Origin: Candidatus Thermosaccharophagus tengchongensis
GTDB lineage: Bacteria; Armatimonadota; Fervidibacteria; Fervidibacterales; Thermosaccharophagaceae
Reading direction: 5' to 3' (one strand)
Assembly: GCA_032161105.1 (NCBI GenBank)
Contig: JAVHTD010000002.1
Length of the DNA: 64,000 nt
Part shown: positions 26,779 to 42,404 of the stretch, one piece after another
Numbering within the stretch: position 1 is the first letter of the stretch
How the letters are laid out: each line of letters opens with the position of its first letter
Position numbers and translations under genes: made by a program
Notes under the pieces: generated by a model
Databases searched by the model: none
Told to the model about the DNA's origin: nothing
Seen by the model: the letters and a program-made list of their open reading frames with translations, nothing else

Positions 26779-28086
26779 ATGGAGATGGCAAGTTTAGGTA
26801 AGAGCATTGGCAGGTGGTTTTACAAAATTGAGCCGTCAATTTTTTTCGTTTTGATGGCATATTTGGCGGGTATTATTGGGGCGAATGGCGATGTAGTATA
26901 CAAGCTGCATGCCGTTCAAAGGGGTGAAACGCTTAAGTCGGTCGCATCACGCTATGGAATTACAGTTGAACAACTTCGTCACGCCAATAGCAGCCTTAAT
27001 TTTCCCGATAATGAGCCTTTACCTGAGGGAAAAATCCTCGTTGTGCCGCTGCAAAGCACCGGGGTAATTAAGGGCGATACGGAGGAAAGGAGTGCTATTT
27101 CGGAGCCTTCAGCTAAAACGAAGGCGAATGCTTTTTGGGTTTATGAAGCCAAAGATGGAGAGACATTGGAGTCAATCGCAAAAAACTTCAAAATTTCGGA
27201 GAAAATTCTGCACGAGTCAAACAGGCACATCAAAATTGGTGAAACATTGCGAGCCGGTGTGACGGTGTTGATTCCGATTTTGATTGATTACCCTAATAAT
27301 GACCAAAAAGTTCGGGAAAATTCAACCTCAGGACAAGAGCGCATCAGCAGAGCAAACAACAATCTTAATAATCTCAGTGCATCAAAGGTCAATAATGTTG
27401 ACAGAGCTGTAAGTGTTAATTTTCCTCAATACAATCGCGAGTTTCCTCGGAATGAAGGCTTGCAGGCGCTTAATCAAAATTTTGCAGTCATTGGTATAGT
27501 CAAAGCTAAAAGCGCAATTTACTCACTTCCGGGGAAAAATTCGGCTCGCTATTACATATGCCAACCGGGCAAAAAACTCGTGATAGTTGGGAGAAAAAAT
27601 GGGTGGCTTGGTGTGCTAATGGTCAATGGCGCAATAGGGTGGATACAAGAAAATTCGGTCACTTTAACCGATAAAACTTTGACGCTCCCAATGGCGAATA
27701 TGGCGCACTTTGTTAGCTATAACTCGCTTAAATATTCCATCGTCAAAGAAGCAATGCGCTATTTGGGTGTGCCATACAGGTATGGTGGCAACTCAACGGA
27801 TGGCATTGACTGCTCGGCGTTCGTTCAAAGGGTGTATGCAGCATTTGGGATTAAGCTCCCAAGGACAGCGACTGAGCAATTGAAGTATGGGGTGGCGGTT
27901 GATTTAGGCCAAATTCAGCCCGGAGATAGGGTTTATTTTTCAAACGATGGTGTGAGGGCAAATCATTGCGGCATTTACATCGGCGACGGGAAGTTTATTC
28001 ACGCCTCCGGAAGACATGGAAGGGTTACGATAAGTTCCCTTTACGAACCGCGGTATTTTAACACCCTTTTCCGCGTGCTCAGGTAG
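26779..28086 (+). CDS. LysM x2 + SH3-like + NlpC/P60 peptidoglycan endopeptidase
   Basis: N-terminal hydrophobic segment; HAVQRGETLKSVASRYG; YLGVPYRYGG, DCSAF and HCGIYIGDGKFIHAS. Confidence 0.9.
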   Translation: MEMASLGKSIGRWFYKIEPSIFFVLMAYLAGIIGANGDVVYKLHAVQRGETLKSVASRYGITVEQLRHANSSLNFPDNEPLPEGKILVVPLQSTGVIKGDTEERSAISEPSAKTKANAFWVYEAKDGETLESIAKNFKISEKILHESNRHIKIGETLRAGVTVLIPILIDYPNNDQKVRENSTSGQERISRANNNLNNLSASKVNNVDRAVSVNFPQYNREFPRNEGLQALNQNFAVIGIVKAKSAIYSLPGKNSARYYICQPGKKLVIVGRKNGWLGVLMVNGAIGWIQENSVTLTDKTLTLPMANMAHFVSYNSLKYSIVKEAMRYLGVPYRYGGNSTDGIDCSAFVQRVYAAFGIKLPRTATEQLKYGVAVDLGQIQPGDRVYFSNDGVRANHCGIYIGDGKFIHASGRHGRVTISSLYEPRYFNTLFRVLR

Positions 28087-28215
28087 GGGCATAGCCAACC
28101 CTGATGGGAGTTACGCAATTAAGCTCAAAACCGGCTGCCAAGTTGCCCATAATTGCGCGACCTCGGTTCCTGAGCTTGATAAAGCTTCTTCATTTTACAC
28201 ATGGGAGGGAAAAGG

Positions 28216-29265
28216 ATGCCGATCAAAGTTGGCATAGTGGGCGCCACTGGATACACTGGCGGCGAGTTGGTGCGCTTCCTTTTGCATCATCCTGAAGTTG
28301 AAATTGTCCACTTGATGAGGCTGACTTCTGAGGAGGAATTGCCCCTTGAGCAAGTTCATCCACATTTGCGCCAATTATCCGGGCTAAAATGCGTTCCAAT
28401 GGACGAGGCAAAACTGGCAAGTGATGTTCAGGTTGTTTTCCTCGCAGTCCCACATGGGGTTGCCATGACCATAGCCCCGAAATTGCTTGATATGGGCTTG
28501 CGTGTGATTGACTTGAGCGCCGATTTCAGGTTAAAAGACGCCAGCGCATTTGAGTTATGGTATCGTGTGGGGCATAAAGCGCCGCATTTGCTTCAAGAAG
28601 CAGTTTATGGCTTGCCTGAGATTTATCGTGACCAGATACGCAACGCACGACTGGTTGCCAATCCGGGGTGCTACCCAATTTCAGCCATACTTGCCCTCAT
28701 GCCGCTGTTCAAATTCGGCATGGCGAATTCAAATCACATCGTGATTGACAGCAAATCTGGCGTATCTGGCGCTGGCAGGTCAAAGACGACAATTGACTAC
28801 CATTACCCAGAGGTGTTTGGTGACTTCAAACCATATGGAATTGCCACACATAGGCACACACCTGAGATTGAACAGGAACTTTCCTTTATCGCCCAAAGGA
28901 ACATAAGTGTCACCTTTACACCGCATCTTTTACCAGTCAGCCGTGGCATATTGACTACGGCATATGTGCTGCTTAATGAGGGCGTAACTATCTCGCAGTT
29001 GCGTGAGGCTTATATTCTGGCGTATGAAGATGAGCCATTTGTGCGCTTGCTGCCGGAAGGCGTCGCACCGAGGCTTAAGGGTGTTATTGGTTCAAACTTT
29101 TGCGATGTGAACATATTCCTTGACGAACGCTCAATGTGTGCCATTGCCATTTCGGCTATTGACAATCTGGCAAAGGGTGCTGCAAGCAATGCCATACAAA
29201 ACATGAACCTGATGTTTGGGCTTGATGAGCGATGTGGGTTAATGCTCCCTGCACTGTCACCCTGA
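28216..29265 (+). CDS. argC: N-acetyl-gamma-glutamyl-phosphate reductase
   Basis: GATGYTG, IDLSADFR, ANPGCY, SGVSGAG and HRHTPE. Confidence 0.96.
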   Translation: MPIKVGIVGATGYTGGELVRFLLHHPEVEIVHLMRLTSEEELPLEQVHPHLRQLSGLKCVPMDEAKLASDVQVVFLAVPHGVAMTIAPKLLDMGLRVIDLSADFRLKDASAFELWYRVGHKAPHLLQEAVYGLPEIYRDQIRNARLVANPGCYPISAILALMPLFKFGMANSNHIVIDSKSGVSGAGRSKTTIDYHYPEVFGDFKPYGIATHRHTPEIEQELSFIAQRNISVTFTPHLLPVSRGILTTAYVLLNEGVTISQLREAYILAYEDEPFVRLLPEGVAPRLKGVIGSNFCDVNIFLDERSMCAIAISAIDNLAKGAASNAIQNMNLMFGLDERCGLMLPALSP

Positions 29266-29398
29266 AGTGAGCGGAGATGGGAAAGATTTGCCCGAAAATG
29301 CGTGAGTTGTCATCTGCACCCATGGTCATACTTCGGTTCACCTTCGTGAGTGAATGCAATGTGAAAGCCAAACATTGTTGATGAGGAGGCGATGGGTT

Positions 29399-30628
29399 GT
29401 GGGTGATGGGATAACTTTTTTGAGCGATGGCTCCGTGACTACGCCAATTGGATTTGTCGCAGCTGGAGTTCACTGTGGCATCAAGAAGGACGGAAAGAAG
29501 GACTTGGCTTTGATTTATAGCGAGCATCCATGCATTGCCGCCGGGACATTCACAACCAATAAGATGAAGGCGGCGCCAGTTATCGTTACTCAGGAAAATT
29601 TGCGCCCAGCGCGTGCAACTATAAAAGCCATAGTGGCATGCAGCGGCATTGCAAACAGTTGCACGGGTAAAGCCGGCATACTGGATGCGAGACAAATGTG
29701 CGACTTAGTTGCCAAGGCTCTTCAGATACTCCCAGAGCAAGTTGTGGTAGCATCCACTGGCAAGATTGGGTTGCGTCTTCCAATGGATCGTGTTGCAAAG
29801 GGCATAGAGGAAGCCGCAAGGAAGCTTTCGCATGATGGCGGCATTGATGCGGCTCATGGAATTATGACAACCGACACTGTCCCAAAGTATGGTGCTGTCA
29901 AGTTCAAAATCAACCAAACTGAAGTTCACATTGGCGGCATAGCGAAAGGCGCTGGCATGATTGCACCAAAGATGGCGACCATGCTTTGCTTCGTGACAAC
30001 CGATGCCAATATAACCAAGAATTGCCTGAAGAAGGCACTATCAAAGGCTGTTGAGTTGACTTTCAACTCAATCACAGTTGACGGTGACACGAGCACGAAC
30101 GATATGGTAATTGCACTGGCAAACGGTGCTGCAGGCAATGGGCGAATAAACAGCGTCTCAAGCGACGCATACCACATCTTTGAGGAGGCGCTCATTGTGC
30201 TTCTCAGGCACCTTGCTCATGCCATTGTCCGTGATGGTGAGGGCTCGACGAAGTTTGTTGAGATAAAAGTGGAAGGCGCCGTAACGGAGCAGGAGGCAAA
30301 GGCTGTCGGGTTCGCCGTTGCAAATTCAAATCTTGTAAAGTGCGCGCTGTTTGGTGGTGACCCCAATGTTGGAAGAATTGCAGCTGCCGTCGGGAGGGCG
30401 CCGGCGAGGATAAATCCGGAAAAGCTGTGCGTGTGGATTAATGACACATGTGTGATGCGTGATGGAACGGTGATTGAGTTTGATAGGGACAGCCTCCGCA
30501 CAAGCCTTTCAAAAGGCTCGGATGTGTTCATACGAATAGAATTGGGTATAGGCAATGCGAGTTGGACCTTATGGACATGTGACTTGACCTACGAGTATGT
30601 TCGGATCAATGCTGAATACGAAGTGTGA
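29399..30628 (+). CDS. argJ: Bifunctional ornithine acetyltransferase
   Basis: IMTTDT, AKGAGMIAPKMATML, DGDTSTND and RDGEG; GTG start chosen after AGGAGG. Confidence 0.95.
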   Translation: MGDGITFLSDGSVTTPIGFVAAGVHCGIKKDGKKDLALIYSEHPCIAAGTFTTNKMKAAPVIVTQENLRPARATIKAIVACSGIANSCTGKAGILDARQMCDLVAKALQILPEQVVVASTGKIGLRLPMDRVAKGIEEAARKLSHDGGIDAAHGIMTTDTVPKYGAVKFKINQTEVHIGGIAKGAGMIAPKMATMLCFVTTDANITKNCLKKALSKAVELTFNSITVDGDTSTNDMVIALANGAAGNGRINSVSSDAYHIFEEALIVLLRHLAHAIVRDGEGSTKFVEIKVEGAVTEQEAKAVGFAVANSNLVKCALFGGDPNVGRIAAAVGRAPARINPEKLCVWINDTCVMRDGTVIEFDRDSLRTSLSKGSDVFIRIELGIGNASWTLWTCDLTYEYVRINAEYEV

Positions 30629-30777
30629 ACGCTCAATCACACACCGATGCCATTGGCAACTTGAGTTAGTTCATGAAGGCACAAAGGTTAGTCACATCGT
30701 AGCTTCTTCCAATATTAGCCCTTATGCCCTCAATGGCGCATCAAAAGGGTCATCGTTTCTTTAACTCACCTGTTGGC

Positions 30778-31518
30778 TCATCTCAACCCGTTGCCATCCC
30801 AGCCAGAGCCAGTTCGCCACTTGCCATTCACCCAGTTGTCTATAACCGCTTCTGCTGAATACCATTTCACATGCCCATCTAAGAAGAGCACATTTGAACC
30901 ACCCATATGGCGAGCATTTTCAGGCTTCTGCCTATCAGGGTTGCACTTAGCAGCGCAAGTATTCGCATAAGCGACACGCCATGGGCTATTTAGCAGACCA
31001 GAGCAGTCAGCAAATATTGGTGTAACTGAATGTTGGGTCCATACAACCAATCGCTCCTGGTCGCTGGTGCCATTTATGATGCTCTCCATATACCCATATG
31101 ACATCACGAAATCGCTTGGAAGCACACCAGCGTTTATCAAATCATTCACTCCATGGTGCGGTATACTCCCATTTGCACACCCGAATGGAGCTGCACTTGG
31201 ACAAGCCCATATCTGCCAGCTCTTGATGTATGGGAAGAGTGACACCTGCGGTTGAATGTTTGTTTTCGGATCCTTTCGCCAACACCATGTATTAGCTCTT
31301 GGCAACCTTTCATCGTAGTCCTGAGCATACTGCAGCACTGCTAAGCCTATTTGCTTCAAGTTGCTTTGGCATACTGCAGTCCTCGCCTTCTCCCTTGCCC
31401 TCGCAAACACTGGAAACAGAATCGCTGCCAAGATGGCGATTATCGCTATCACCACCAGCAGCTCTATCAGCGTGAAGCCTCTCCAACTCAACTTAAGCAT
31501 TCTACCTGCTCGCTTCAT
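30778..31518 (-). CDS. Prepilin-type N-terminal cleavage/methylation protein, DUF1559 with H-X9-DG C-terminus
   Basis: [60 protein letters not shown]. Confidence 0.93.
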
Positions 31519-31732
31519 TTCACATCCCTCCCTTGAGTTTATTTTGAGCACGCCACATTCAAAGCCTCACAACGCCATCATAACCATCATGTGGCAGCTT
31601 AAAGCTGCCACTAATGCGAACTCTAACTGCATCACCCTCCTTTGGTATGGGATTGACTTCACTCCCACAACCCGGCTTTAGCACAGCACAATTTGTTTGT
31701 AAAGCCTCACATCGCAATCTCGTCAAATGCCT

Positions 31733-32083
31733 GTTCGTAGTAAGCCACGAAGCGTTAGCGAAGTGGCGTTCGTATGACATTATTGACGGCACTTCACTTT
31801 GTTCCGTGCCTCACTACGAACCTTCGCCACAAAGTGAAAGCGGAGTGGCGTTCATATGACATCGTTCGTAGTAAGCCACGAAGCGATAGCGGAGTGGCGT
31901 TCATATGGCATCATTGACGGCACTCCACTTCGTTTCGTGCCTTACTACGAACCTTCGCCACGAAGCGAAAGCGGAGTGGCGTTCATATGACATCGTTCGT
32001 AGTAAGCCACGGAGCGATAGCGAAGTGGCGTTCATATAACATCGTTGACGGCACTTCACTTCGTTTCGTGCCTCACTACGAAC
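31733..32083. repeat. Tandem array of three 89-nt palindromic REP-like units, 131-bp period
   Basis: Units start GTTCGTAGTAAGCCAC at 31733, 31864 and 31995 and end CTACGAAC; the 42-nt linkers are near-identical partial copies of the unit. Confidence 0.9.
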
Positions 32084-32108
32084 CTTTGGACTCATTATCC
32101 GTTTGCAT

Positions 32109-32165
32109 GGGCGGACGATAGTCCGCCCGAAATCGTTCCTTCGGGCGGCTTGCAGCCGCCACTAC
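32109..32165. repeat. REP-like hairpin doublet (GTAG class)
   Basis: GGGCGGAC-GATA-GTCCGCCC, then GGCGGCTTGCAGCCGCCACTAC (reverse complement begins GTAG). Confidence 0.6.
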
Positions 32166-32411
32166 TAAACACGGACACTGGTGAGCTTGAGTTGACTGGG
32201 ATTAGCGTTTCAGTTCCAACGCCCGTGTGCGTAAGATTTGCAAAGCCGTTGGAGGAATGAGCACGCATAAGCCGTAGCAGCGTGAGTGAGGATAGCACCA
32301 TGGAACAGCTGCAATCTGCATCCCGTCATAATTATGAGTCCGAAATGCAACGGGCATCAGCAACGCGATGGTCTATCGGGTGCGCATAACGAATGAGTGA
32401 GGTGAATCACG

Positions 32412-35400
32412 ATGGCGCACAAGTTTGCCTTAAGGCGTGCGTTAGCAGTTGGTTCATCACTTGGTGTGGTATTTGCGGCGCTCCTCATTTACATGCTGGC
32501 TCGCAGCGCAACCTCTGGGACATTGCAGCAAAGTGAGTATTTGCCCTCGCCACTTGAAACCCATCTTATCGGACAGCGTGAGTGGCTTGCTGGCTCAACA
32601 GCATCATTGCGCATCATCGTCCGAAACCATGAGAAGGACGAACCAATCGCTAACGCGCAGGTTAAAGCCTCACTCAAACACGAGGGTGGACAAACGATAC
32701 AGCTCTTCACGGAGCGCACAAATAGGCATGGGACGGTTGAGAGGGCATTCGCAGTGCCATCATGGGCAGTCGGCAGGAATGAACTTGAAGTCAATGTGAA
32801 GACACCAATAGGGGAAGACAAAATCGTTGAAGCGGTCACTGTGCGTGATGAGGTGCGAATCCTGTTAACCACCGACAAGCCGCTGTATCAGCCGTCGCAA
32901 ATCATACACATGCGTGCGCTGTGCCTGAATGCAGCGACTTTGAAGCCGGCATCCAACATGCAAATCTCGTTTGAGGTTGAGGACCCGAAGGGCAACAAAG
33001 TCTTCAGGAAGCGCGAGAGGACATCGCAATTTGGCATTGCCAGCGCAGACTTCCAACTCGCTGACGAAATCAACCTCGGAAACTATACCGTTAGAGCAGT
33101 TGCGCAAACCGCCGATGACAAAGGCGAGCTAAGGAAGGTTGGCGAAGCAACGCAGACCGTCAAAGTTGACCGATATGTTTTGCCCAAGTTCAAGGTTGAG
33201 CTTGAGACATCAAAGCGCTTCTACCTTCCGGGTGAGGAAGTTAGCGGGACGGTTAAGGCGAACTACTTCTTTGGCAAGCCGGTCTCCGACGGCGAGGTCA
33301 TCATCAAGCTTTCAACATTTGATGTCGGTTGGAATCAGATTGCCGAGCTTCGTGGGCACACCGATGGCGATGGAGTTTATAGGTTCAGCTATCGCTTGCC
33401 CGTGCACTTTGTCGGGCTGCCGCTTGAGCAGGGTAAAGCGCTGCTCAGAATTGATGTGCGGGTTACGGACAGGGCTGAGCATGAGGAGCAAATAACCGAA
33501 ACGCTGCCTATAGCGAAAGAGGCAATAAGCATCGTCGTGATACCCGATAGCCAAGCATTTGCAAAGGGCATCCCCAACACGCTTTTCATGGTCACGACAT
33601 ATCCCGATGGGACGCCGGCTAAGGCGAGCATAAAAGCAGTTGGGGATGGAATCAACTGGCAAGGTGAGACGGATGAAGCCGGCATTGCTGAGCTGCAATT
33701 TGTGCCAGCCAAAGAGCCCATCAGCATTACCGTTGAAGCAATTGATAGGCAGGGCAACAGGGGCAAATTGGTGAGGACGATTGAGAGCCAAGTCAGCGAT
33801 GAAGCCATTTTGCTCCGCACAAGTAAGGCAGTGGCGAAAGTCGGCGATGCAATACAGCTGACGGTTCTTTCGCCGAGGCGTGGTGGCACTGTCTACATTG
33901 ATGCAATCAGGGGAAGGCAAACTGTGCTCACCAAGGCGCTTGAGATGAACGGCACGAAGGGCGTCATGCAGCTGGCACTCACCGAGCAGATGATGGGCAC
34001 ATTGACGCTTCACGCATACCGAATAACGAGGACGGGTCAAATTGTCCGTGATACAAAGGTCGTCTATGTCAATCCGGCTGAGGACCTGCGCGTATCCATC
34101 AAGCCGGACAGGGATGTGTATCTTCCGGGCAAGGAGGCGCGAATTGACTTTTCCGTTTCTGACACCTCAGGGAGACCATTGCTTGCAGCGCTCGGAATAA
34201 CCGCAGTTGATGAGTCAGTCTATGCCCTTCAGGAAATGCAGCCGGGGCTTGAGAAGGTTTACTTCACGCTTGAGCGGGAGCTGCTTAAGCCGAGGTATGA
34301 AATTCACGGCTTTGAACCGATAGTGATACTTCGTGAGCCAACAAGACCGATCCCGCTTGAGCGCAAGCAGCCGGCTGAGATTGATGAGAGGAAGCAAAGA
34401 GCTGCGAGGGTGCTGTTTGCTGCGGCAATGCCGGACTTGCACACAATGCATGTGAACACATGGCAGGTGAGGGCACAACAGCTCCGTGAGAAGTGGATTG
34501 AGCATGCCGAGAAGGCTTACACGCGAGTGATGAATGCCCTTGAGCAATATCGCCGGCGCTATGGTGATTACCCGGAGCCAAAGGAAGTTATAGACGCCCT
34601 CATCCGTGAGAGGCTGCTCAGCCGCCAAGATGTGCTTGATCCTTTGGGGAGGGAGTATCGCGTTGAGCTTTTGAGGGGTCGCTTCCTTTCGCTCATCGGG
34701 GCAGGACCGGACGGTGAGTTCGGGACAAGTGATGATGTGAGAATGCCACAGGAGCTTCGGTTGAAATTTCGGCGTGATGTAATTGCTTTGGAGGGAGGAC
34801 CGATTCAAGCGCTTGCGGTTCCCCCGGGAGTTCCGGGAGTTAGAGGAGTTGTAGCCGAAGCCGAAAAAGCCGCAGCATTTGGCGCAGCCGGCGCTGGCGC
34901 GCCTGAGGCGCAGCAAATTCGCATAAGGCAGTTCTTCCCGGAGACGCTTTTGTTCATCCCGCAACTGATCACCGACGAGCGCGGCAGGGCATCGCTCAAC
35001 CTGACGATGGCTGACTCAATCACAACATGGCGGTTGACTGCGATGGCATCCTCTCTCAATGGCTTGCTCGGGAGCGCTGTAGCATCGTTGCGAGTCTTTC
35101 AGGACTTCTTCGTTGACATTGACCTTCCGGTCAGCTTGACACAGGGGGACGAGGTCTCAATACCAGTTGCGATTTACAACTACTTGCCGGCTGCTCAAAC
35201 TGTGCGCCTGCAACTTCAACCCGAAGATTGGTTTGAGCCGCTGAGCAGCATTGAGCAAACTGTGAGGATGAACGCCGGCGAAGTTGGCGTGGTTAGATTC
35301 CCGATACGGGTTAAGGCGCTCGGGACGCACAGCATGACAGTGGTCGCTCGTGGCGAGAAGATGAGCGACGCAATAAAGCGCCAAGTGATGGTTGTCCCAA

Positions 35401-37037
35401 ACGGCAAGGAAGTCTGGCAGTCAATTAGCGACACGCTCAAAGGCAGCACAAGGAAGGTCGTGAAGATACCGCCGCAGGCGATTGATGACGCCTCAACGAT
35501 ACTTGTGCGCGTTTACGGTGGCGGGTTCAGCCAAGTCGTTGATGGCTTGGATAAACTGCTCCGCATGCCGTTCGGATGCTTTGAGCAAACCTCTTCCGTC
35601 ACATATCCGAATGTGCTCGTCCTTGATTACATGAAGCGCACAAGGCAAATCAACCCAGAGATACAGATGAAGGCTGAGCAGTATATCAACTTGGGCTATC
35701 AGCGCCTGCTCACATTTGAGGTCAAGGGTGGCGGCTTCTCATGGTTTGGCAATCCGCCGGCACATGAGGTGCTAACCGCATACGGGCTAATGGAGTTCAA
35801 TGACATGAGCAAGGTCTTTGAGATTGACGGGCGTGTGATAGAAAGAACTGCCAAGTGGCTCATCTCAAGGCAGCGTCAAGATGGCTCTTGGGAACCACCG
35901 AAGGAAGGGATTCGTGAGGGCGTCATAAACCGGCAGACGGATGTGATGCGAACGACGGCATACATTGCTTGGGCACTCACAGAGGCGTTGGCGAGCGTCT
36001 CTGATGCGGAAGTGAAGCGCTCAATCGGAAGGGCGATTGATTACATGATGGGACAGCGGGTTGAAGGCGTTGAAGATGCCTATGCGCTCGCTGTGATTGC
36101 GAATGCGTTTGTCGGTTGGGATAGGGACAACCCTGTTACGGGACGATTGATTGAGAGGCTCGCCAACATGGCTATCGTTGATGGTGATTCAGCCTATTGG
36201 CGCACGAGTGCGCCCACATTCACACACAGCAAAGGGATGACGGCTGACCTTGAGGCGACGGCGCTTGCCGCATATGCATTGTTGAGGGCTCGCTCGCATC
36301 CGGATCTTGTGAGCAAGGCTTTGACATACCTCGTCAGGAACAAGGACGCTTTCGGCACTTGGCACAACACACAGGCAACCGTTTGGGCGCTTAAGGCGTT
36401 GCTGCTTGCGACTGAGGGCGCAACGAGCGAGATTGATGCTCAAATCACCATACGATGCAACGGGATGGAAGCAGCGAAGCTGCGTATCACGCCAGAAGAT
36501 AGCGATATCGTTCGCCAGGTTGACTTGAAGAAGTTCGTAAGGGAGGGCGATAATGAAATCGCTATTGACTGGCAGGGCAAAGGGAGCGCAATCTATCAAA
36601 TCGCATCACGGTTCTACTTGCCTTGGGATCTGATTCGGGGCGAGGAGAAGGAGCCGCTTGATGTAAGCGTTGATTACGACAGGCGTGAGCTGTCAGTCAA
36701 CGACATCGTCAAATGCACGGTGAGGGTGAAGAACAACCAACCGATGACGGCGAAGATGGTCATCGTTGATGTTGGCATACCGCCCGGCTTCCAAGTCATC
36801 TCCGAGGACTTGGCAAAGCTCGTGGAACAGAAGGTCATACAAAAGTTCAACCTGACTGGGAGGCAGGTTATCGTCTACCTTGAGGAGGTGCGCTCGCAAA
36901 GCACCGTGATAATTTCGTATCGCCTGAGGGCGACTTGCCCGATCAGGGCGAGCTCTGGCGCTGCTGCTGCCTACGAATACTATGCACCTGAGGAGACACG
37001 CGTTGAGGCAAAGCCAGTGAGGTTGGTTGTGAAGTGA
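32412..37037 (+). CDS. Alpha-2-macroglobulin family thioester protein with internal GspG-like domain
   Basis: N-terminal hydrophobic segment; TDKPLYQP, YVLPKF, AVDESVYAL, IRQFFPET and DSITTW; thioester GCFEQ at 35574-35588; C-terminal AYEYY. Confidence 0.92.
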   Translation: MAHKFALRRALAVGSSLGVVFAALLIYMLARSATSGTLQQSEYLPSPLETHLIGQREWLAGSTASLRIIVRNHEKDEPIANAQVKASLKHEGGQTIQLFTERTNRHGTVERAFAVPSWAVGRNELEVNVKTPIGEDKIVEAVTVRDEVRILLTTDKPLYQPSQIIHMRALCLNAATLKPASNMQISFEVEDPKGNKVFRKRERTSQFGIASADFQLADEINLGNYTVRAVAQTADDKGELRKVGEATQTVKVDRYVLPKFKVELETSKRFYLPGEEVSGTVKANYFFGKPVSDGEVIIKLSTFDVGWNQIAELRGHTDGDGVYRFSYRLPVHFVGLPLEQGKALLRIDVRVTDRAEHEEQITETLPIAKEAISIVVIPDSQAFAKGIPNTLFMVTTYPDGTPAKASIKAVGDGINWQGETDEAGIAELQFVPAKEPISITVEAIDRQGNRGKLVRTIESQVSDEAILLRTSKAVAKVGDAIQLTVLSPRRGGTVYIDAIRGRQTVLTKALEMNGTKGVMQLALTEQMMGTLTLHAYRITRTGQIVRDTKVVYVNPAEDLRVSIKPDRDVYLPGKEARIDFSVSDTSGRPLLAALGITAVDESVYALQEMQPGLEKVYFTLERELLKPRYEIHGFEPIVILREPTRPIPLERKQPAEIDERKQRAARVLFAAAMPDLHTMHVNTWQVRAQQLREKWIEHAEKAYTRVMNALEQYRRRYGDYPEPKEVIDALIRERLLSRQDVLDPLGREYRVELLRGRFLSLIGAGPDGEFGTSDDVRMPQELRLKFRRDVIALEGGPIQALAVPPGVPGVRGVVAEAEKAAAFGAAGAGAPEAQQIRIRQFFPETLLFIPQLITDERGRASLNLTMADSITTWRLTAMASSLNGLLGSAVASLRVFQDFFVDIDLPVSLTQGDEVSIPVAIYNYLPAAQTVRLQLQPEDWFEPLSSIEQTVRMNAGEVGVVRFPIRVKALGTHSMTVVARGEKMSDAIKRQVMVVPNGKEVWQSISDTLKGSTRKVVKIPPQAIDDASTILVRVYGGGFSQVVDGLDKLLRMPFGCFEQTSSVTYPNVLVLDYMKRTRQINPEIQMKAEQYINLGYQRLLTFEVKGGGFSWFGNPPAHEVLTAYGLMEFNDMSKVFEIDGRVIERTAKWLISRQRQDGSWEPPKEGIREGVINRQTDVMRTTAYIAWALTEALASVSDAEVKRSIGRAIDYMMGQRVEGVEDAYALAVIANAFVGWDRDNPVTGRLIERLANMAIVDGDSAYWRTSAPTFTHSKGMTADLEATALAAYALLRARSHPDLVSKALTYLVRNKDAFGTWHNTQATVWALKALLLATEGATSEIDAQITIRCNGMEAAKLRITPEDSDIVRQVDLKKFVREGDNEIAIDWQGKGSAIYQIASRFYLPWDLIRGEEKEPLDVSVDYDRRELSVNDIVKCTVRVKNNQPMTAKMVIVDVGIPPGFQVISEDLAKLVEQKVIQKFNLTGRQVIVYLEEVRSQSTVIISYRLRATCPIRASSGAAAAYEYYAPEETRVEAKPVRLVVK

Positions 37038-37041
37038 TGCT

Positions 37042-37857
37042 TTAAAGCTCCACATCCCTCGGTGCGAGTGAGAGAACGCCCCTTAGGATGCCTATGAGCG
37101 TCGTGTTCGGTGGCAGGGCCACCTCCAAACTGATATATTGCGGCTTTGATAGCTTTGAGAGCTCCGCAAAGAATTGGTGCCAGTTGATGCAGCCCCTCCC
37201 CGGGGGCAAATGCAGATCTTCAAAACCATCGTTATCGTTCCAATGAATGATGATCAAATGCGGTGCGAGGGTGTGCAGCGATTGTATCAATCCCTCAGCG
37301 CTTATGTTCGCATGACCGGTATCAAGGCACACCTTTAATCGCTCGCTCGACACGCTCGCAACCAGCTCAATTAGCTCTGAGGAGCTGTCACCGATGGCAA
37401 TCGGAGTGAGGTTTTCAACGGCGATGATGACATTGTATTTTTCCGCCCACTCAATGAGCCTTGCGAGGCTATCAATTGATGCCCTCAGGGCTTCCTCACG
37501 CATACCAGCATCGTGCAATCTTCCCCCGGGGTGCACAACAACGACGCTCGCACCGATGGCTCTCGCCACTTCAATTGCGCGCCTGTGTGCAGTGATGGCT
37601 CGTTGCCTGTGCGAATGGTCTAAGCTGCTCAAATCGTATTGTCCGCCGTATGGCGCATGCAATGCACAAGCTTGAACGCCATTCTTATGCAACGCAGCGC
37701 TGAGAGCACTCACTTCAGCTTCGTCAAAGAAGTTGAAGTGGTGCTCGCCATCAGCCCAAACTTCAATTGAGCTTGCTCCTTCCTTCGCGAGCTTGTGAAT
37801 GTAGCGTGACAGGCGCACGCCATGAAACATTGATGAACAAACTATCAAGCGCATCAT
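37042..37857 (-). CDS. Sugar phosphate isomerase/epimerase family protein
   Basis: ALHAP, VVHPG, AVEN, LDTGH and HWNDN..DLH. Confidence 0.82.
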   Translation of the reverse strand: MMRLIVCSSMFHGVRLSRYIHKLAKEGASSIEVWADGEHHFNFFDEAEVSALSAALHKNGVQACALHAPYGGQYDLSSLDHSHRQRAITAHRRAIEVARAIGASVVVVHPGGRLHDAGMREEALRASIDSLARLIEWAEKYNVIIAVENLTPIAIGDSSSELIELVASVSSERLKVCLDTGHANISAEGLIQSLHTLAPHLIIIHWNDNDGFEDLHLPPGRGCINWHQFFAELSKLSKPQYISLEVALPPNTTLIGILRGVLSLAPRDVEL

Positions 37858-38109
37858 CGCTCCCTTCTCGGCTTTCCCATTTGCACCCGTGAGGGCATCA
37901 CCGTTCCATTATGCCAAAGTTGGGGACAACGATGAATCTGAAGCGAATGTCAACTCCGACCTATTCACCGTAAGCATCGCAAACTGTGCCGCCTTGCAGG
38001 ACCGAAGGGCATTTCTCACTCAACCTTTTCCCTTCCATTCCCCATTGGTGCCACGCTGCACACTATTATGCGGGGTCAATACAATAAGTGCAAAGTGGGG
38101 TGTGCGCAG

Positions 38110-39129
38110 TTGAGTGCGTTAAACGGCTTATGCAAAATTGATCTAAGCGCCAGAGTTGGGCGATTGACATTGCGGACGCCAATCATACTGGCATCAGGTT
38201 GTTGTGGCTACGGCTTTGAACTTTTGAGGGTGAACGACTTCCCGTGGGAGGATGTCGGTGCGCTTGTGCTAAAGAGCGTAACCGTGAAGCCGAGGTCTGG
38301 AAAGCCGCCACCAAGGGTTGCCGAGGTCACCGCCGGAATGTTAAACGCCATCGGCGTGCAAAATGAGGGCATAGATGCGTTTATGGAAAAGGTTGTCCCG
38401 AAGCTGAGCGAACTGCCATGCACGGTCATCGCGAGCATCATAGGTGAGACGAAGGAAGAGTATGGGGTGCTCGCTGAAGCCATGAGCAAGTGCAATAGCA
38501 TAGCAGCCATTGAGGTCAACATATCCTCACCGAACATAGAGCGTGGCGGAATTGAGTTTGGGGTTGACCCGGATGCAGCTGGTGAAATCACGAGGCTCGT
38601 CAAGGGGCTATCTGATAAAGATGTGTGGGTGAAGCTCTCACCGAATGCCCATGACATTGCACTCATTGCGCAGAGGTGCGCCGAAGCCGGGGCTGATGTC
38701 CTCGTGCTCACAAACACAGTTCCCGCAATGGGTCTTGATATGCGCTCCTTCCCTCCAAAGCCGTTGCTTGGGGCGGTTGTTGGTGGTTTATCAGGTCCGG
38801 CTATAAAGCCGATAGTCGTCCGCAAGGTGTATGAGGCGGTGAGGCAGCTGCGCAAAATGGCGGTGAGCACTCAAGTTGTAGCATCTGGCGGTGTTTGGAG
38901 GGGGCATGACATCATTGAATATCTCTCAGTTGGAGCGGTTGCTGTGCAGGTTGGGACGCTGCTTTTGCACGATGTGCATGCGCCAAGGAGACTGCGCATT
39001 GAGCTTGAGCAATATGCGCAATGGGTGTATGGACTCACGGGCGATGAGAAGTGGCTGCGCATATCAAGTTATATCGGGTGTGCATTGCAAGCGTGTGAAT
39101 CATGGGGGGGTGTGAATGATGAGGGTTAG
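38110..39129 (+). CDS. pyrD: Dihydroorotate dehydrogenase (family 1-like)
   Basis: ILASG, MLNAIG, EVNISSPN, VKLSPN, GGLSGPAIKP and AVQVGT; start uncertain. Confidence 0.88.
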   Translation: MSALNGLCKIDLSARVGRLTLRTPIILASGCCGYGFELLRVNDFPWEDVGALVLKSVTVKPRSGKPPPRVAEVTAGMLNAIGVQNEGIDAFMEKVVPKLSELPCTVIASIIGETKEEYGVLAEAMSKCNSIAAIEVNISSPNIERGGIEFGVDPDAAGEITRLVKGLSDKDVWVKLSPNAHDIALIAQRCAEAGADVLVLTNTVPAMGLDMRSFPPKPLLGAVVGGLSGPAIKPIVVRKVYEAVRQLRKMAVSTQVVASGGVWRGHDIIEYLSVGAVAVQVGTLLLHDVHAPRRLRIELEQYAQWVYGLTGDEKWLRISSYIGCALQACESWGGVNDEG

Positions 39130-39829
39130 TTGCCCTCACAGGTGGGATGTGACGCCTGAGGAGGCTATTGAGATACAGCGCCAATTAGCCCCGCAGGTCA
39201 TTGATGAAGATGTTGTGCCCGACCTGTTGTCATCGGCACGCTATGTTGCAGGCGTTGATGTCCATCAGGCTGCGGATGGGAAGATGAGAGCTGTCGTATG
39301 CGTGCTCACCTTCCCATCGCTCACGGTTGAGGAATATGCCGACGCCGAGGTTGAAGTCTCGTTTCCATACATTCCGGGATTGCTCGCCTTCCGTGAGGGT
39401 CCGGCAGTGCTTAAGGCGTTTGAGAAGCTCAATGTGACTCCCGACTTCATACTTTGGGATGCACAGGGGAGGGCTCACCAGAGGCGTCTTGGACTTGCCT
39501 CGCAGATGGGCTTAATCCTTGACATACCATCGGTGGGGTGCGCAAAGAGCATCCTGTATGGCGAATGGACTGAGCCGAGGGATGAGGTCGGCGCTTGGAC
39601 TCCAATCATTGACCCGAAAGATGGCGATATCATCGGCGCAACGGTGCGCACAAAGAGGGGCGTTCAACCGGTGTTCGTCTCAATTGGGCACAAGGTCAGC
39701 TTGGAGACAGCCATTGAGCTCGTGCTCAGATGCTGCGCGGGATATCGCATACCAGAGCCACTGCGCTGCGCGCATAAGCGTGCGAAGGAACAACCAAAGG
39801 AGCAAAGCGAACAGCTCAGCTTGTTCTAA
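39116..39829 (+). CDS. nfi: Endonuclease V
   Basis: AGVDV, FPYIPGLLAFRE, GCAKS, PVFVSIGH and YRIPEPLRCAH. Confidence 0.93.
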   Translation: MMRVSCPHRWDVTPEEAIEIQRQLAPQVIDEDVVPDLLSSARYVAGVDVHQAADGKMRAVVCVLTFPSLTVEEYADAEVEVSFPYIPGLLAFREGPAVLKAFEKLNVTPDFILWDAQGRAHQRRLGLASQMGLILDIPSVGCAKSILYGEWTEPRDEVGAWTPIIDPKDGDIIGATVRTKRGVQPVFVSIGHKVSLETAIELVLRCCAGYRIPEPLRCAHKRAKEQPKEQSEQLSLF

Positions 39830-39894
39830 TGGCATTGCTCGCCCTTTAACATCGGCATGGTGGAGGTGCTATCCCACTGGGCAGGCTCACAGCT

Positions 39895-41571
39895 GTGCTC
39901 CTTATGCTCGTGTCCCTGTTTGGGTTGTGCATCAGGTTGGCTATAGCGTGGCAGCCATATGACTGGCTCATACGCACTGGCTCATTCGGCGATGATGCAT
40001 GCTACTATGCGGCGATAGCGCATAACATAGCAAAGGGCAACGGAGCCACAACTGATGGAATACATACGACCAACGGATTTCAGCCGCTGTGGGCATTCAT
40101 GCTCGTCCCAATCTACGCCTTGGGAGCTTCAAAGGAGAGCGCCATCAACATCGCAATGACAATCCTCGCCACCTTCAGCGCCTTAACTGGATTGGTGCTG
40201 TTCCTTTTGGCAAAGCGGCTGTGGGATGAGCGTGTTGCGCTGTGGGTCTCCTTCTTCTGGATGACATCGCCGACCGTCTTGAGGCAGTCACTCAATGGCA
40301 TGGAAACTGGTCTTTATGTCTTCATGCTTTCCCTCGCATCGCTGCTCATCATCTGGCATAGTTCTCGTGCGAGACAGACGGCATTTGAAATTGTCGCCAT
40401 CGGACTTGTGCTCGGTTTGGTTGTCTTGAGCAGGGTTGATGGGATGCCATTTGCGCTTGCTGCCGTGCTCTCATGCGCAATCAATCCGGCGACATGTGGG
40501 TATGCCGGCGGCAATGTTTCAACTGCACAACCGTTCAAATGCGCTCATCCCTCTTTCATTGATTCACCGCTTATTAGGCTCTCGGTCATCCTGTTTGTGT
40601 TCTTGGTGACGCTTTCACCGTGGCTCATTTATAGCCTTGTCACCACCGGAAAGCTCATCCCCGAGAGTGGCAGTGCTGTGCGTTACCTATCGCTCGCATA
40701 CATTGGTGCTATTGATGAGGGCGTTACATGGCGTGTGCTGCGCCATTCATTAGCCCAGACTGCTTCAACGCTGCTGAGAGCGCAGCAGTGGAGCTTTATC
40801 AAGTCCCGCATCGCCTGCATCGTTGGTGAGCAAATGATGGCAATTCTGACCATCACCCTGCTGTCATTGGCACTGCCAACCCTGTTTTGGCTTGTGCGCG
40901 TCGGCTGCTTTCGGGTGGCTGTATGCAAGTTGCGGGTAATGCTCAAGTTGTGGTTTTGGATTGTCCACGCAATTGCGCTCTTGCTCGCATACTCGCTATA
41001 TCAGTTTGGCTGGTGGTTTTTCCCGCGCTACTTCTTCGCCGTCGTTCCCCTCGGCATTATTGCCGGTTCACTGCTTGTTGAAGCGCTTCGCTTGAGCTTG
41101 GAAGGGCTTTCCCGCAATAGCCGATTGAAACCCCTTCCAAAGCTTTTTGTGGTAGCCGTTGTGCTCATGCAGCTTGCCCAACTCAGCATCGGCTGGCATT
41201 ACATGCAAGCACGCATGTTCGGAGCATTTGAAGAGTATTTGAATGTGGCGATGTGGCTCAGGGGACACATCCCGCAGGACGCTCGCATAGGCATGTTTCA
41301 ATCCGGGACAGCAAGCTACCTATCTGAGCGCACAGTTATTAACCTTGACGGTGTAGTCAACGGAGAAGCCTTGAAGGCAATGCTCAATGGACAGATGCTG
41401 AATTATGTTGCGTCACAGGGCATATCATATATTGCAGATTGGGACGAGTTGATCCAGCTGTTGCTTGTCGGGCGCTCGCCGAGGGAGGAGCTCTCAAAAT
41501 GGAAGCTCATTCGGCTTCGGAAGGGAGAGATGTCCGTTTACAAACTTGTGAGGAGCGTAGACAGCAAGTGA
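39895..41571 (+). CDS. Polytopic membrane glycosyltransferase (GT-C/ArnT-like)
   Basis: DDACYY..A in the first loop, TNGFQPLW, NGMET and many transmembrane helices; C-terminal INLDGVVN; start uncertain. Confidence 0.7.
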   Translation: MLLMLVSLFGLCIRLAIAWQPYDWLIRTGSFGDDACYYAAIAHNIAKGNGATTDGIHTTNGFQPLWAFMLVPIYALGASKESAINIAMTILATFSALTGLVLFLLAKRLWDERVALWVSFFWMTSPTVLRQSLNGMETGLYVFMLSLASLLIIWHSSRARQTAFEIVAIGLVLGLVVLSRVDGMPFALAAVLSCAINPATCGYAGGNVSTAQPFKCAHPSFIDSPLIRLSVILFVFLVTLSPWLIYSLVTTGKLIPESGSAVRYLSLAYIGAIDEGVTWRVLRHSLAQTASTLLRAQQWSFIKSRIACIVGEQMMAILTITLLSLALPTLFWLVRVGCFRVAVCKLRVMLKLWFWIVHAIALLLAYSLYQFGWWFFPRYFFAVVPLGIIAGSLLVEALRLSLEGLSRNSRLKPLPKLFVVAVVLMQLAQLSIGWHYMQARMFGAFEEYLNVAMWLRGHIPQDARIGMFQSGTASYLSERTVINLDGVVNGEALKAMLNGQMLNYVASQGISYIADWDELIQLLLVGRSPREELSKWKLIRLRKGEMSVYKLVRSVDSK

Positions 41572-42404
41572 GGAGGGCATCATGCCCTTGGTGCGATTAC
41601 GCCGATTGGTCTCCATTGATCATTGATGATGGCATCCCAGTAGCCAAATGCAGGTGCTGCGGTGTAGCCTTCGCGGTCGTCGTCCCAACAATTCAATACC
41701 TGCGTGAGTATTACACGGAGCAGTTTTCAGATGAGCGCTACTGGGAGAGGGAACTTTCCTCGGCTCGCCCGTGGCTGCACAGGCGCTTGCTCGCGAGGAT
41801 AATGCGATATAAGCCGAGCGGAACGCTGCTTGATGTCGGCTGCTCATTTGGCTTCTTCATCAACATGGCAAGGCAATTCGGATACAGCGTCATCGGTGTT
41901 GAGATAAGCGAGCCGGCGGCAAACTACGCACGCAACAAACTCGGGTTGAATGTCCTCTCAGGAACGCTTGAAGACGCATGCCTTGAAGATGAGAGCGTTG
42001 ATGTTGTCACTTTGGTTGATGTGCTTGAGCACATCCCTGAGCCGATGGCGACACTGCGCGAGATAAGGCGATTGCTGCGCAGCGGTGGCTTGCTTGTCGT
42101 CCGTGTTCCGAACTTCAAGTTCCATTGGCTCAAAACACTCCTTCTGAGGGCGCTCAAGAGGCGCAACTTCATCGGGCTTGACTCGCGCAACCATATTAAT
42201 CACTTCACCGTTGATGCTTTGACAAAGGGCTTGCACCGGCTTGGCTTTGAAGTGATTGATGTGTTCCCCGGCGCACCGAACATCTACCGAAAGTGGCTAT
42301 TTGATGCCGTGCGAGTGGCTTATTGGGCGATGGCGGTTGCTTTAAAAGTGGCGCTTGGAATTCAGGTCGGGAACAGCATTGAGGTCTTCGCAATGAAGCG
42401 TTAA
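41568..42404 (+). CDS. Class I SAM-dependent methyltransferase with N-terminal CxxC pair
   Basis: CPWC..CRCC, LLDVGCSFGFF and DVLEHIP; GTG overlaps the upstream TGA. Confidence 0.85.
   Translation: MRRASCPWCDYADWSPLIIDDGIPVAKCRCCGVAFAVVVPTIQYLREYYTEQFSDERYWERELSSARPWLHRRLLARIMRYKPSGTLLDVGCSFGFFINMARQFGYSVIGVEISEPAANYARNKLGLNVLSGTLEDACLEDESVDVVTLVDVLEHIPEPMATLREIRRLLRSGGLLVVRVPNFKFHWLKTLLLRALKRRNFIGLDSRNHINHFTVDALTKGLHRLGFEVIDVFPGAPNIYRKWLFDAVRVAYWAMAVALKVALGIQVGNSIEVFAMKR

Follow-up and report, generated by a model that had tools for sequence, protein, structure and literature searches.

Described bacterial macroglobulins are of the Escherichia coli type and structurally unlike the animal proteins, according to the passages of PMC9156758 that treat them. 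The same passages suggest that E. coli-type alpha-2-macroglobulins (A2Ms) may use extra N-terminal MG domains for shielding. For monomeric A2ML1 they propose covalent capture together with steric hindrance by LNK residues, the N-terminal bait and glycans, and they present LNK residues and N-terminal bait residues in the protease cavity as steric shields. LNK and bait form a single insert in MG6, where complement proteins have the anaphylatoxin domain (passages of PMC9156758). The calcium ligands of the pseudopilin GspG are D117, T122 and D125 in the portions of PMC3396595 and PMC13081927 that list them; the latter assigns the calcium site to stability and the alpha3-beta1 loop to secretion specificity.

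Here we describe a gene in a window of 64,000 nucleotides (the whole stretch of DNA that was analysed) from Candidatus Thermosaccharophagus tengchongensis. It encodes an A2M with the head of a GspG pseudopilin inserted between LNK and bait. A literature search, with subscription journals and supplements outside its range, found no description of a GspG head in the LNK-bait slot of an A2M.

Results

The host gene encodes an animal-type thioester protein

The following features of the gene were assigned:
32412..37037, plus strand: gene for a metazoan-type A2M/thioester protein of 1541 aa, with MG1-MG8, CUB and TED (Pfam, model)
32442..32498, plus strand: hydrophobic N-terminal segment, residues 11-29, putative signal peptide or signal anchor (hydropathy and motif scan only)
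34077..34211, plus strand: MG6a, first half of the split MG6, about residues 556-600 (boundaries by analogy with A2ML1, passages of PMC9156758)
34212..34454, plus strand: LNK region, about residues 601-681, partly helical, low-confidence at 644-652 (predicted model)
34926..34946, plus strand: RQFFPET, residues 839-845, start of MG6b
35574..35588, plus strand: thioester motif GCFEQ, residues 1055-1059 (Cys1056, Gln1059)
35913..35915, plus strand: Arg1168, aligned with the CD109 His and the A2M Asn
36645..37034, plus strand: MG8 / receptor-binding-type domain at the protein end, with no C345C domain (Pfam)

Pfam recognises MG2, MG3, MG4, A2M_BRD, A2M, TED and A2M_recep in the 1541-aa protein. 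The A2M_BRD match at residues 468-606 covers MG5-MG6a and, despite its name, is not the bait. No lipobox motif was found at the N-terminus by motif scan. The AlphaFold model of residues 46-1000 (pLDDT 86, pTM 0.77) has a confident MG ring.

The best PDB sequence matches are members of the metazoan A2M family, namely A2M (E 1e-71, 245 bits), CD109 (E 3e-69, 237 bits) and A2ML1 (E 5e-61, 210 bits). Representative structures are human A2M 6tav/7von, CD109 8s3o/9fx3, A2ML1 7q1y and Anopheles TEP1 2pn5. By fold, the model of residues 46-1000 matched CD109 9fx3 first; CD109, C3 and C4 were best and ECAM was at rank 49. The protein has in common with metazoan A2Ms the MG ring, LNK and a disordered bait inside MG6, and the CxEQ motif. 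It differs from them in the folded pseudopilin head between LNK and bait, in Arg1168, in the N-terminal hydrophobic segment and in being bacterial.

E. coli YfhM/ECAM is likewise bacterial and shares the thioester and the MG/TED layout, whereas the lipobox, the extra N-terminal MG domains and the pbpC neighbour of the E. coli type are absent here. BLASTP against YfhM gave 51 bits at 22% identity, a bit score that is not strictly comparable with those of the A2M search; in a comparison made with one program, CD109 reached E 1.5e-20 and YfhM E 2.6e-4. Another A2M-like gene of the genome, probably divided between the ends of two contigs (G000:C28:29545-32862 and G000:C33:3-1466), has a CxEQ motif and a short slot without insert, and is closer to the E. 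coli type.

In the A2M/complement family a His directs the thioester to hydroxyls, and the CD109 His and A2M Asn tune thioester specificity. The thioester motif GCFEQ is intact, as an earlier note on this DNA had read it, and its Cys is present in all 117 relatives that cover the position. Unlike complement, the protein has Arg1168 where the hydroxyl-directing His is expected; among 121 relatives this column holds Ala in 82, His in 23, Arg in 9, another residue in 2 and a gap in 5. It further differs from C3, C4 and C5 in that a cysteine-free pilin fold replaces the anaphylatoxin domain, the long bait is kept and C345C is missing. By analogy with A2ML1 and CD109, it is probably an exported, monomeric thioester protease trap of this animal design.

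A GspG pseudopilin head lies between LNK and bait

Two further features fill the space between LNK and MG6b:
34455..34742, plus strand: GspG pseudopilin-head-like domain, residues 682-777 (Pfam, profile, fold comparison)
34743..34916, plus strand: disordered Ala/Gly/Pro-rich bait, residues 778-835 (model; median identity 13.8% across relatives)

The order of domains is LNK, GspG head, bait and MG6b, and the head is in frame between AVDESVYAL (residues 598-606) and RQFFPET, that is, between the two halves of MG6. The earlier note had placed a pilin-like segment at 34500..34745, adjoining the bait. The segment is real and does lie between LNK and the Ala/Gly/Pro-rich stretch; the module is slightly larger, 34455-34742. 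It consists of a long amphipathic helix, a short helix, a DxWG-type turn, a beta hairpin and a calcium loop. MNALEQY starts at 34530, DPLG is at 34638-34649 and the GPDG..GTSDD loop at 34701-34736.

The homology to GspG that had been proposed was borne out by Pfam, by an insert profile and by fold. PF08334 (T2SSG) scored 25.5 bits (E 1.5e-5) on the cut-out piece, against a cut-off of 21, and 17.3 bits, below the cut-off, within the whole protein; it matched 21 of 34 aligned inserts at E<=0.01. When a profile of the 34 inserts was compared to the PDB, the eight best matches were all GspG chains (best E 3.1e-9), and the alignment runs from the helix to the calcium loop. Against the genome's own GspG the profile gave an hhalign probability of 95. 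Searched over 17,570 six-frame genome ORFs, it matched only the A2M gene 32412-37037 and the real GspG (E 2.5e-4), the next match being at E 2.3.

The head was predicted with mean pLDDT 80 in a model of residues 658-784, and with block means of about 78-93 within the model of residues 46-1000. Foldseek with the 658-784 model returned major pseudopilins at all of ranks 1-10 (best E 0.015, none <=0.001). VIA-align over 48,161 chains placed EpsG 4lw9 at the top (Z 9.1, rmsd 3.3, 95 aligned) and PulG 5wda second (Z 8.3), followed by type IV pilins with Z of 6.4 or lower. Other searches gave less: single-sequence phmmer against the PDB reached GspG at E 1.4 only, TIGR01710 (cut-off 88.85 bits) scored 14.2, and an ESM Atlas search gave no usable match.

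A DUF1559 prepilin was rejected as the donor of the head (hhalign probability 5, compared with 95 for GspG). Mere convergence of the calcium loop was ruled out, because the GspG match spans helix to loop. Residues 682-777 are a GspG-head homologue and not a pilin. The layout is partly visible in databases, since PF08334 is among the precomputed domains of 12 of 120 listed relatives (only these) and two cluster members carry the source name 'pseudopilin PulG'.

The head keeps calcium ligands and has lost pilus features

The loop was assigned as follows:
34701..34736, plus strand: predicted calcium-binding loop, PERCAL-type

The calcium-loop signature recognised in the earlier note was confirmed at the level of sequence, where D767, T772 and D775 match GspG D117, T/S122 and D125. 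The head keeps these ligands and would bind calcium. Conservation of the columns in 121 proteins is near complete (D767 in 120, T772 in 117, D774 in 121, D775 in 121). GPDGEFGTSDD fits the PERCAL motif, G-x-D-G-x-x-[GN]-[TN]-x-D-D, as worded in the relevant part of PMC3396595. Unlike plain PERCAL, the loop comes with a whole GspG head; loop-only repeat proteins are separate matches.

With GspG/PulG/EpsG (PF08334; 3g20, 4lw9, 5wda) the domain shares helix, DxWG turn, hairpin and calcium-loop ligands. It differs in being an internal domain, behind a charged helix, with no prepilin cleavage or N-methylation site and no hydrophobic helix; no hydrophobic segment was found in the readable head slots of the scanned proteins. 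About 12 residues of the alpha3-beta1 loop are also missing: the specificity loop (residues 69-83) falls in a 12-residue gap of the profile against 3g20, 29jd and 1t92. The GspG salt bridges of E44/D48 with R87/R88 align to M707/E711 and R738/Q739, with the 87/88 mapping uncertain as it lies beside the gap. In the 121 proteins these columns vary (707: D46, R20; 711: E36, Q31, R26; and, subject to the same uncertain mapping, 738: R47, K29, E23; 739: S33, R30). By column counts in the same proteins, conserved head positions are core and calcium residues, and surface positions vary. The head cannot be a pilus subunit because it is without methylation site, hydrophobic helix and specificity loop.

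The genomic setting does not connect the gene to pili

The neighbours of the A2M gene are a DUF1559 prepilin and a TIM barrel on the opposite strand:
30778-31551, minus strand: DUF1559 prepilin-type gene, one of about 35 in the genome

Such prepilin genes are scattered over the genome. A link to the upstream prepilin gene was rejected, as 3 of 44 loci, including one from a close relative, have prepilin motifs, and no neighbouring gene is conserved across loci. Unlike GspG, the A2M gene lies outside the T2SS operon, which is on another contig with its own GspG. Upstream of the A2M gene, at 31733-32125, a 131-bp unit with 23-nt inverted arms is present three times in tandem; this repeat is a dispersed, REP- or MITE-like element, given its 59 BLAST matches on 12 genome contigs. 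No Rfam match was found within 28000-42000, and no promoter or terminator pattern upstream of the A2M gene.

The earlier note had suggested that the pilin fold serves as a docking module for pili, or as a decoy for pilus-targeting proteases or phages. The GspG homology is true, the genome has a T2SS operon besides its many prepilins, and GspG is found in 108 of 123 carrier genomes, all of which would fit such roles. GspG is found as well in 177 of 278 non-carriers, and the genomes are related and not independent, which leaves a mild association between A2M carriage and GspG among related genomes. Moreover, none of five carriers (96-98% complete, chosen for having no TIGR01710 match) yielded a free PF08334 protein; the one match was the insert itself. 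The lost assembly features, with salt-bridge positions variable as far as the uncertain mapping allows, and the rarity of prepilin neighbours argue against a dock.

The bait next to the head occurs as two alleles

The bait contains the following feature, which starts 16 bases after the head:
34758..34889, plus strand: 132-bp bait cassette with two same-length diverged alleles (4 of 4 metagenome runs; 3 of 6 cluster mates with the other allele)

The model of residues 46-1000 has pLDDT <50 at residues 791-832. In 121 proteins the bait is 43-168 aa long (median 62). Median identity of relatives to the 1541-aa protein is 35% for the head, 38% for MG1 and 30% for MG4, against 13.8% for the bait. 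Differences were also counted within nine 90% clusters, using the 64 of 93 listed members that have all anchors. The head differs least (0.94%) and the bait most (6.83%), with the remaining regions at 1.2-1.9%. Three of the six mates in the protein's own cluster differ at 35 of 59 bait residues, whereas the 96 residues of the head have 0-1 differences. It is the variable disordered stretch after the head, and not the head itself, that forms the bait. The proposal of a pilin fold in the trigger region therefore holds in that the head is beside the bait, and fails in that the head does not replace it.

Metagenome contigs were examined from four runs of four studies, picked from 13 runs that contain the locus and representing hot-spring populations; none of the listed runs containing the locus is an RNA dataset. 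A single bubble at 34758-34889 was present in 4 of 4 runs, while the head itself had point changes only. Allele depths were 18.9/20.1, 4.2/4.59, 216/116 and 315/257, where contig depth gives a rough share of alleles only. As the sum of the two is close to the depth of the flanks, paralogy was ruled out as the cause of the bubble, and the gene is single-copy with two bait alleles side by side. None of the six frames of the bait yields the second allele, which excludes inversion or frameshift as its source. No silent bait copy was found by tblastn or blastn in the genome (assembly 97% complete, 44 contigs), and no telling repeats at the cassette ends. In two of three congeners the DNA match is likewise interrupted at the bait, and in the third it is confined to sequence downstream of the bait.

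We infer that balancing selection keeps the bait polymorphism, and its presence in several hot-spring populations suggests an ongoing conflict with proteases. Diversification would be expected of a decoy, but here the bait is what varies and no region is as constant as the head. Because the head is near-constant and the adjacent bait exists in two versions, the head is more likely a lid or arm than a decoy. Together with the points raised above on docking, this makes a pilus dock, or a decoy aimed at phages or pilus-targeting proteases, highly improbable.

The head is near-universal in the family and repeatedly multiplied

A query of LNK plus head matched 130 of 401 genomes of the phylum, or 123 after removal of seven weak matches, and a query of the MG6b-TED core matched 123 of 401. 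In 44 GTDB loci (Armatimonadota, Planctomycetota, Acidobacteriota and Myxococcota by record titles) the calcium loop was found by pattern in 38 and as a variant in one, and five end before the loop. The head is present in 121 of 121 proteins of the first search; a relative (P0086) is encoded by the cultured Fervidibacter sacchari. Of 30 loci from the phylum to which the Myxococcota genome G401 belongs, 29 have a readable slot, and all 29 keep a diverged head module. The loci of that phylum (L091-L119) have strongly acidic baits.

The insert profile gave 6645 matches in 1.84 billion representatives. Among the best 150 of these, a list that favours repeat-bearing proteins, 117 are A2Ms with one (13), two (25), three (73) or four (6) heads in the slot. 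Some of the remaining 33 are signal-peptide proteins that consist solely of three heads. P0222, P0230, P0231 and P0282, for example, are about 275 aa long, with a signal-peptide-like start, three tandem GspG heads and no prepilin motif; the head thus exists as a free-standing repeat module. Some three-head members (P0304, P0312) are without the thioester Cys. Additional slot cargo was seen among P0094, P0108 and P0243, with a dockerin after the head or CarboxypepD_reg after three heads, and L024, L030 and L040 have long helical expansions before the head.

In a quick tree of 63 cores, with a very long branch as root and the incomplete-core rows P0218, L012, L024, L030, L040 and L077 left out, proteins with the head lie on either side of the deepest split that has good support, and for this reason the insertion of the head looks old. 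The head module is near-universal in the clade, in four phyla and in one to four copies.

An old passenger, retained only because an unfolded head next to the bait would be cut too early, would agree with conservation confined to fold-determining residues and with the tolerance of the slot. We consider it very improbable, as the head was found in every first-search protein and every readable slot of the G401 phylum, has been multiplied repeatedly, and no clade member with a plain short slot was seen.

Sister genes have membrane helices in the slot

Six of the 12 weak matches fetched are same-family genes whose slot has 2-5 predicted membrane helices and no head (L077:1696-7097, L078:1-5583, L079:1056-6664, L081:1044-6559, and also L080 and L083). 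The thioester motif was not found in L077. In four of the six, the final slot helix matches the DUF1559 prepilin N-terminal helix (E 1e-15 to 9e-5), and an ECF-type sigma gene is directly upstream of four of the six. These four sigma-linked sisters begin with an anti-sigma-like zf-HC2 domain, recognised by Pfam in three and by its motif in the fourth. The sigma-linked sisters are possibly a protease-sensing signal system.

A search with one membrane-helix slot returned only five proteins, four with zf-HC2. The combination of zf-HC2 with GspG heads was found in 3 of 69 N-terminally complete representatives: P0215, P0295 and P0338 have zf-HC2, a membrane helix, A2M and three to four GspG heads in one protein. 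It was found in 0 of 95 closer relatives and is absent from ORF 32412-37037. The membrane forms occur at several places on the 63-core tree. Since these forms, with their DUF1559-type helix, are scattered, pilin parts entered the slot more than once.

These sisters bear on a further explanation, in which the slot tethers the trap to an envelope component, a surface polymer or a partner and the N-terminal half stays put after cleavage. The membrane helices, the dockerin or CarboxypepD_reg of other relatives and the secreted tri-head proteins would all be in line with attachment, and tandem heads would add avidity. The column counts reveal no evident conserved surface patch, however, there is no conserved neighbouring gene, and the protein already has an N-terminal hydrophobic segment. 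The membrane forms, moreover, are derived and scattered and may be repurposed. Attachment is unlikely as the role of the head.

The C3 anaphylatoxin domain contacts MG3 and MG8. By analogy with the domain layout in the passages of PMC9156758 cited above, the slot of the GspG head corresponds topologically to the position of that domain. The head might accordingly brace MG3/MG8 as a lock that holds the thioester closed as long as the bait is uncut. Its presence on both sides of the deepest split in the sampled family and the best matches of the MG ring model (CD109, C3 and C4) would suit a lock. Against it, about 60 residues of disordered bait separate head and MG6b, as in trap-type A2Ms, the head is absent from sisters with an intact thioester, and a copy number of one to four is hard to fit with one precise interface. 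We regard the lock as quite improbable.

Discussion

The best reading of the head is as a co-opted, calcium-stapled structural module that is neither bait nor pilus part. Tentatively, and with confidence somewhat short of even, we favour its being a calcium-stabilised lid or bait-presenting arm that would shield the trapped protease, because it sits at the LNK/bait junction and would stay on LNK after the bait is cut. Export, calcium binding, trapping and the lid role are what we infer by analogy. A protease would cut the disordered bait (778-835), the C-terminal bait segment would retract after the cut, and the thioester would open and link to the protease; capture would be amine-directed, the thioester-directing His being absent. 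Lying N-terminal to the cut, the head would remain joined to LNK. As a rigid, protease-resistant arm or lid it would hold out the bait and then help to wall in the captured protease, the job proposed in A2ML1 for flexible LNK, N-terminal bait residues and glycans.

In favour of the lid, the model of residues 46-1000 shows the protein to be without extra N-terminal MG domains. The conserved core and calcium residues, the variable surface and an identity like that of MG1 and MG4 point to bulk over a specific partner, and the slot tolerates one to four heads, helical expansions and further folded domains. The membrane helices of the six sisters, the dockerin and the three-head-only proteins count against the lid and point to attachment or binding. 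The higher frequency of GspG in carriers, which are kin and not independent, also counts against it.

In a wider and distinctly unlikely reading, this would be a separate, animal-like bacterial thioester family that acts as a platform of innate defence and sensing. Proteases would drive balancing selection on its bait, the slot would hold a pilin-built counterpart of the anaphylatoxin domain, and in some lineages zf-HC2/ECF sigma wiring would turn protease attack into transcription.

Judged from its sequences, the bacterial family follows the animal A2M design and appears to be common, with about 123 of 401 sampled genomes of the phylum and three other phyla. The pseudopilin head is reused outside pili as a repeatable module with predicted calcium binding. 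The two bait alleles are a ready variant pair for specificity assays. A folded domain at the anaphylatoxin position is a natural test of protease shielding by a monomeric trap, and the family informs how bait-type and complement-type triggers relate.
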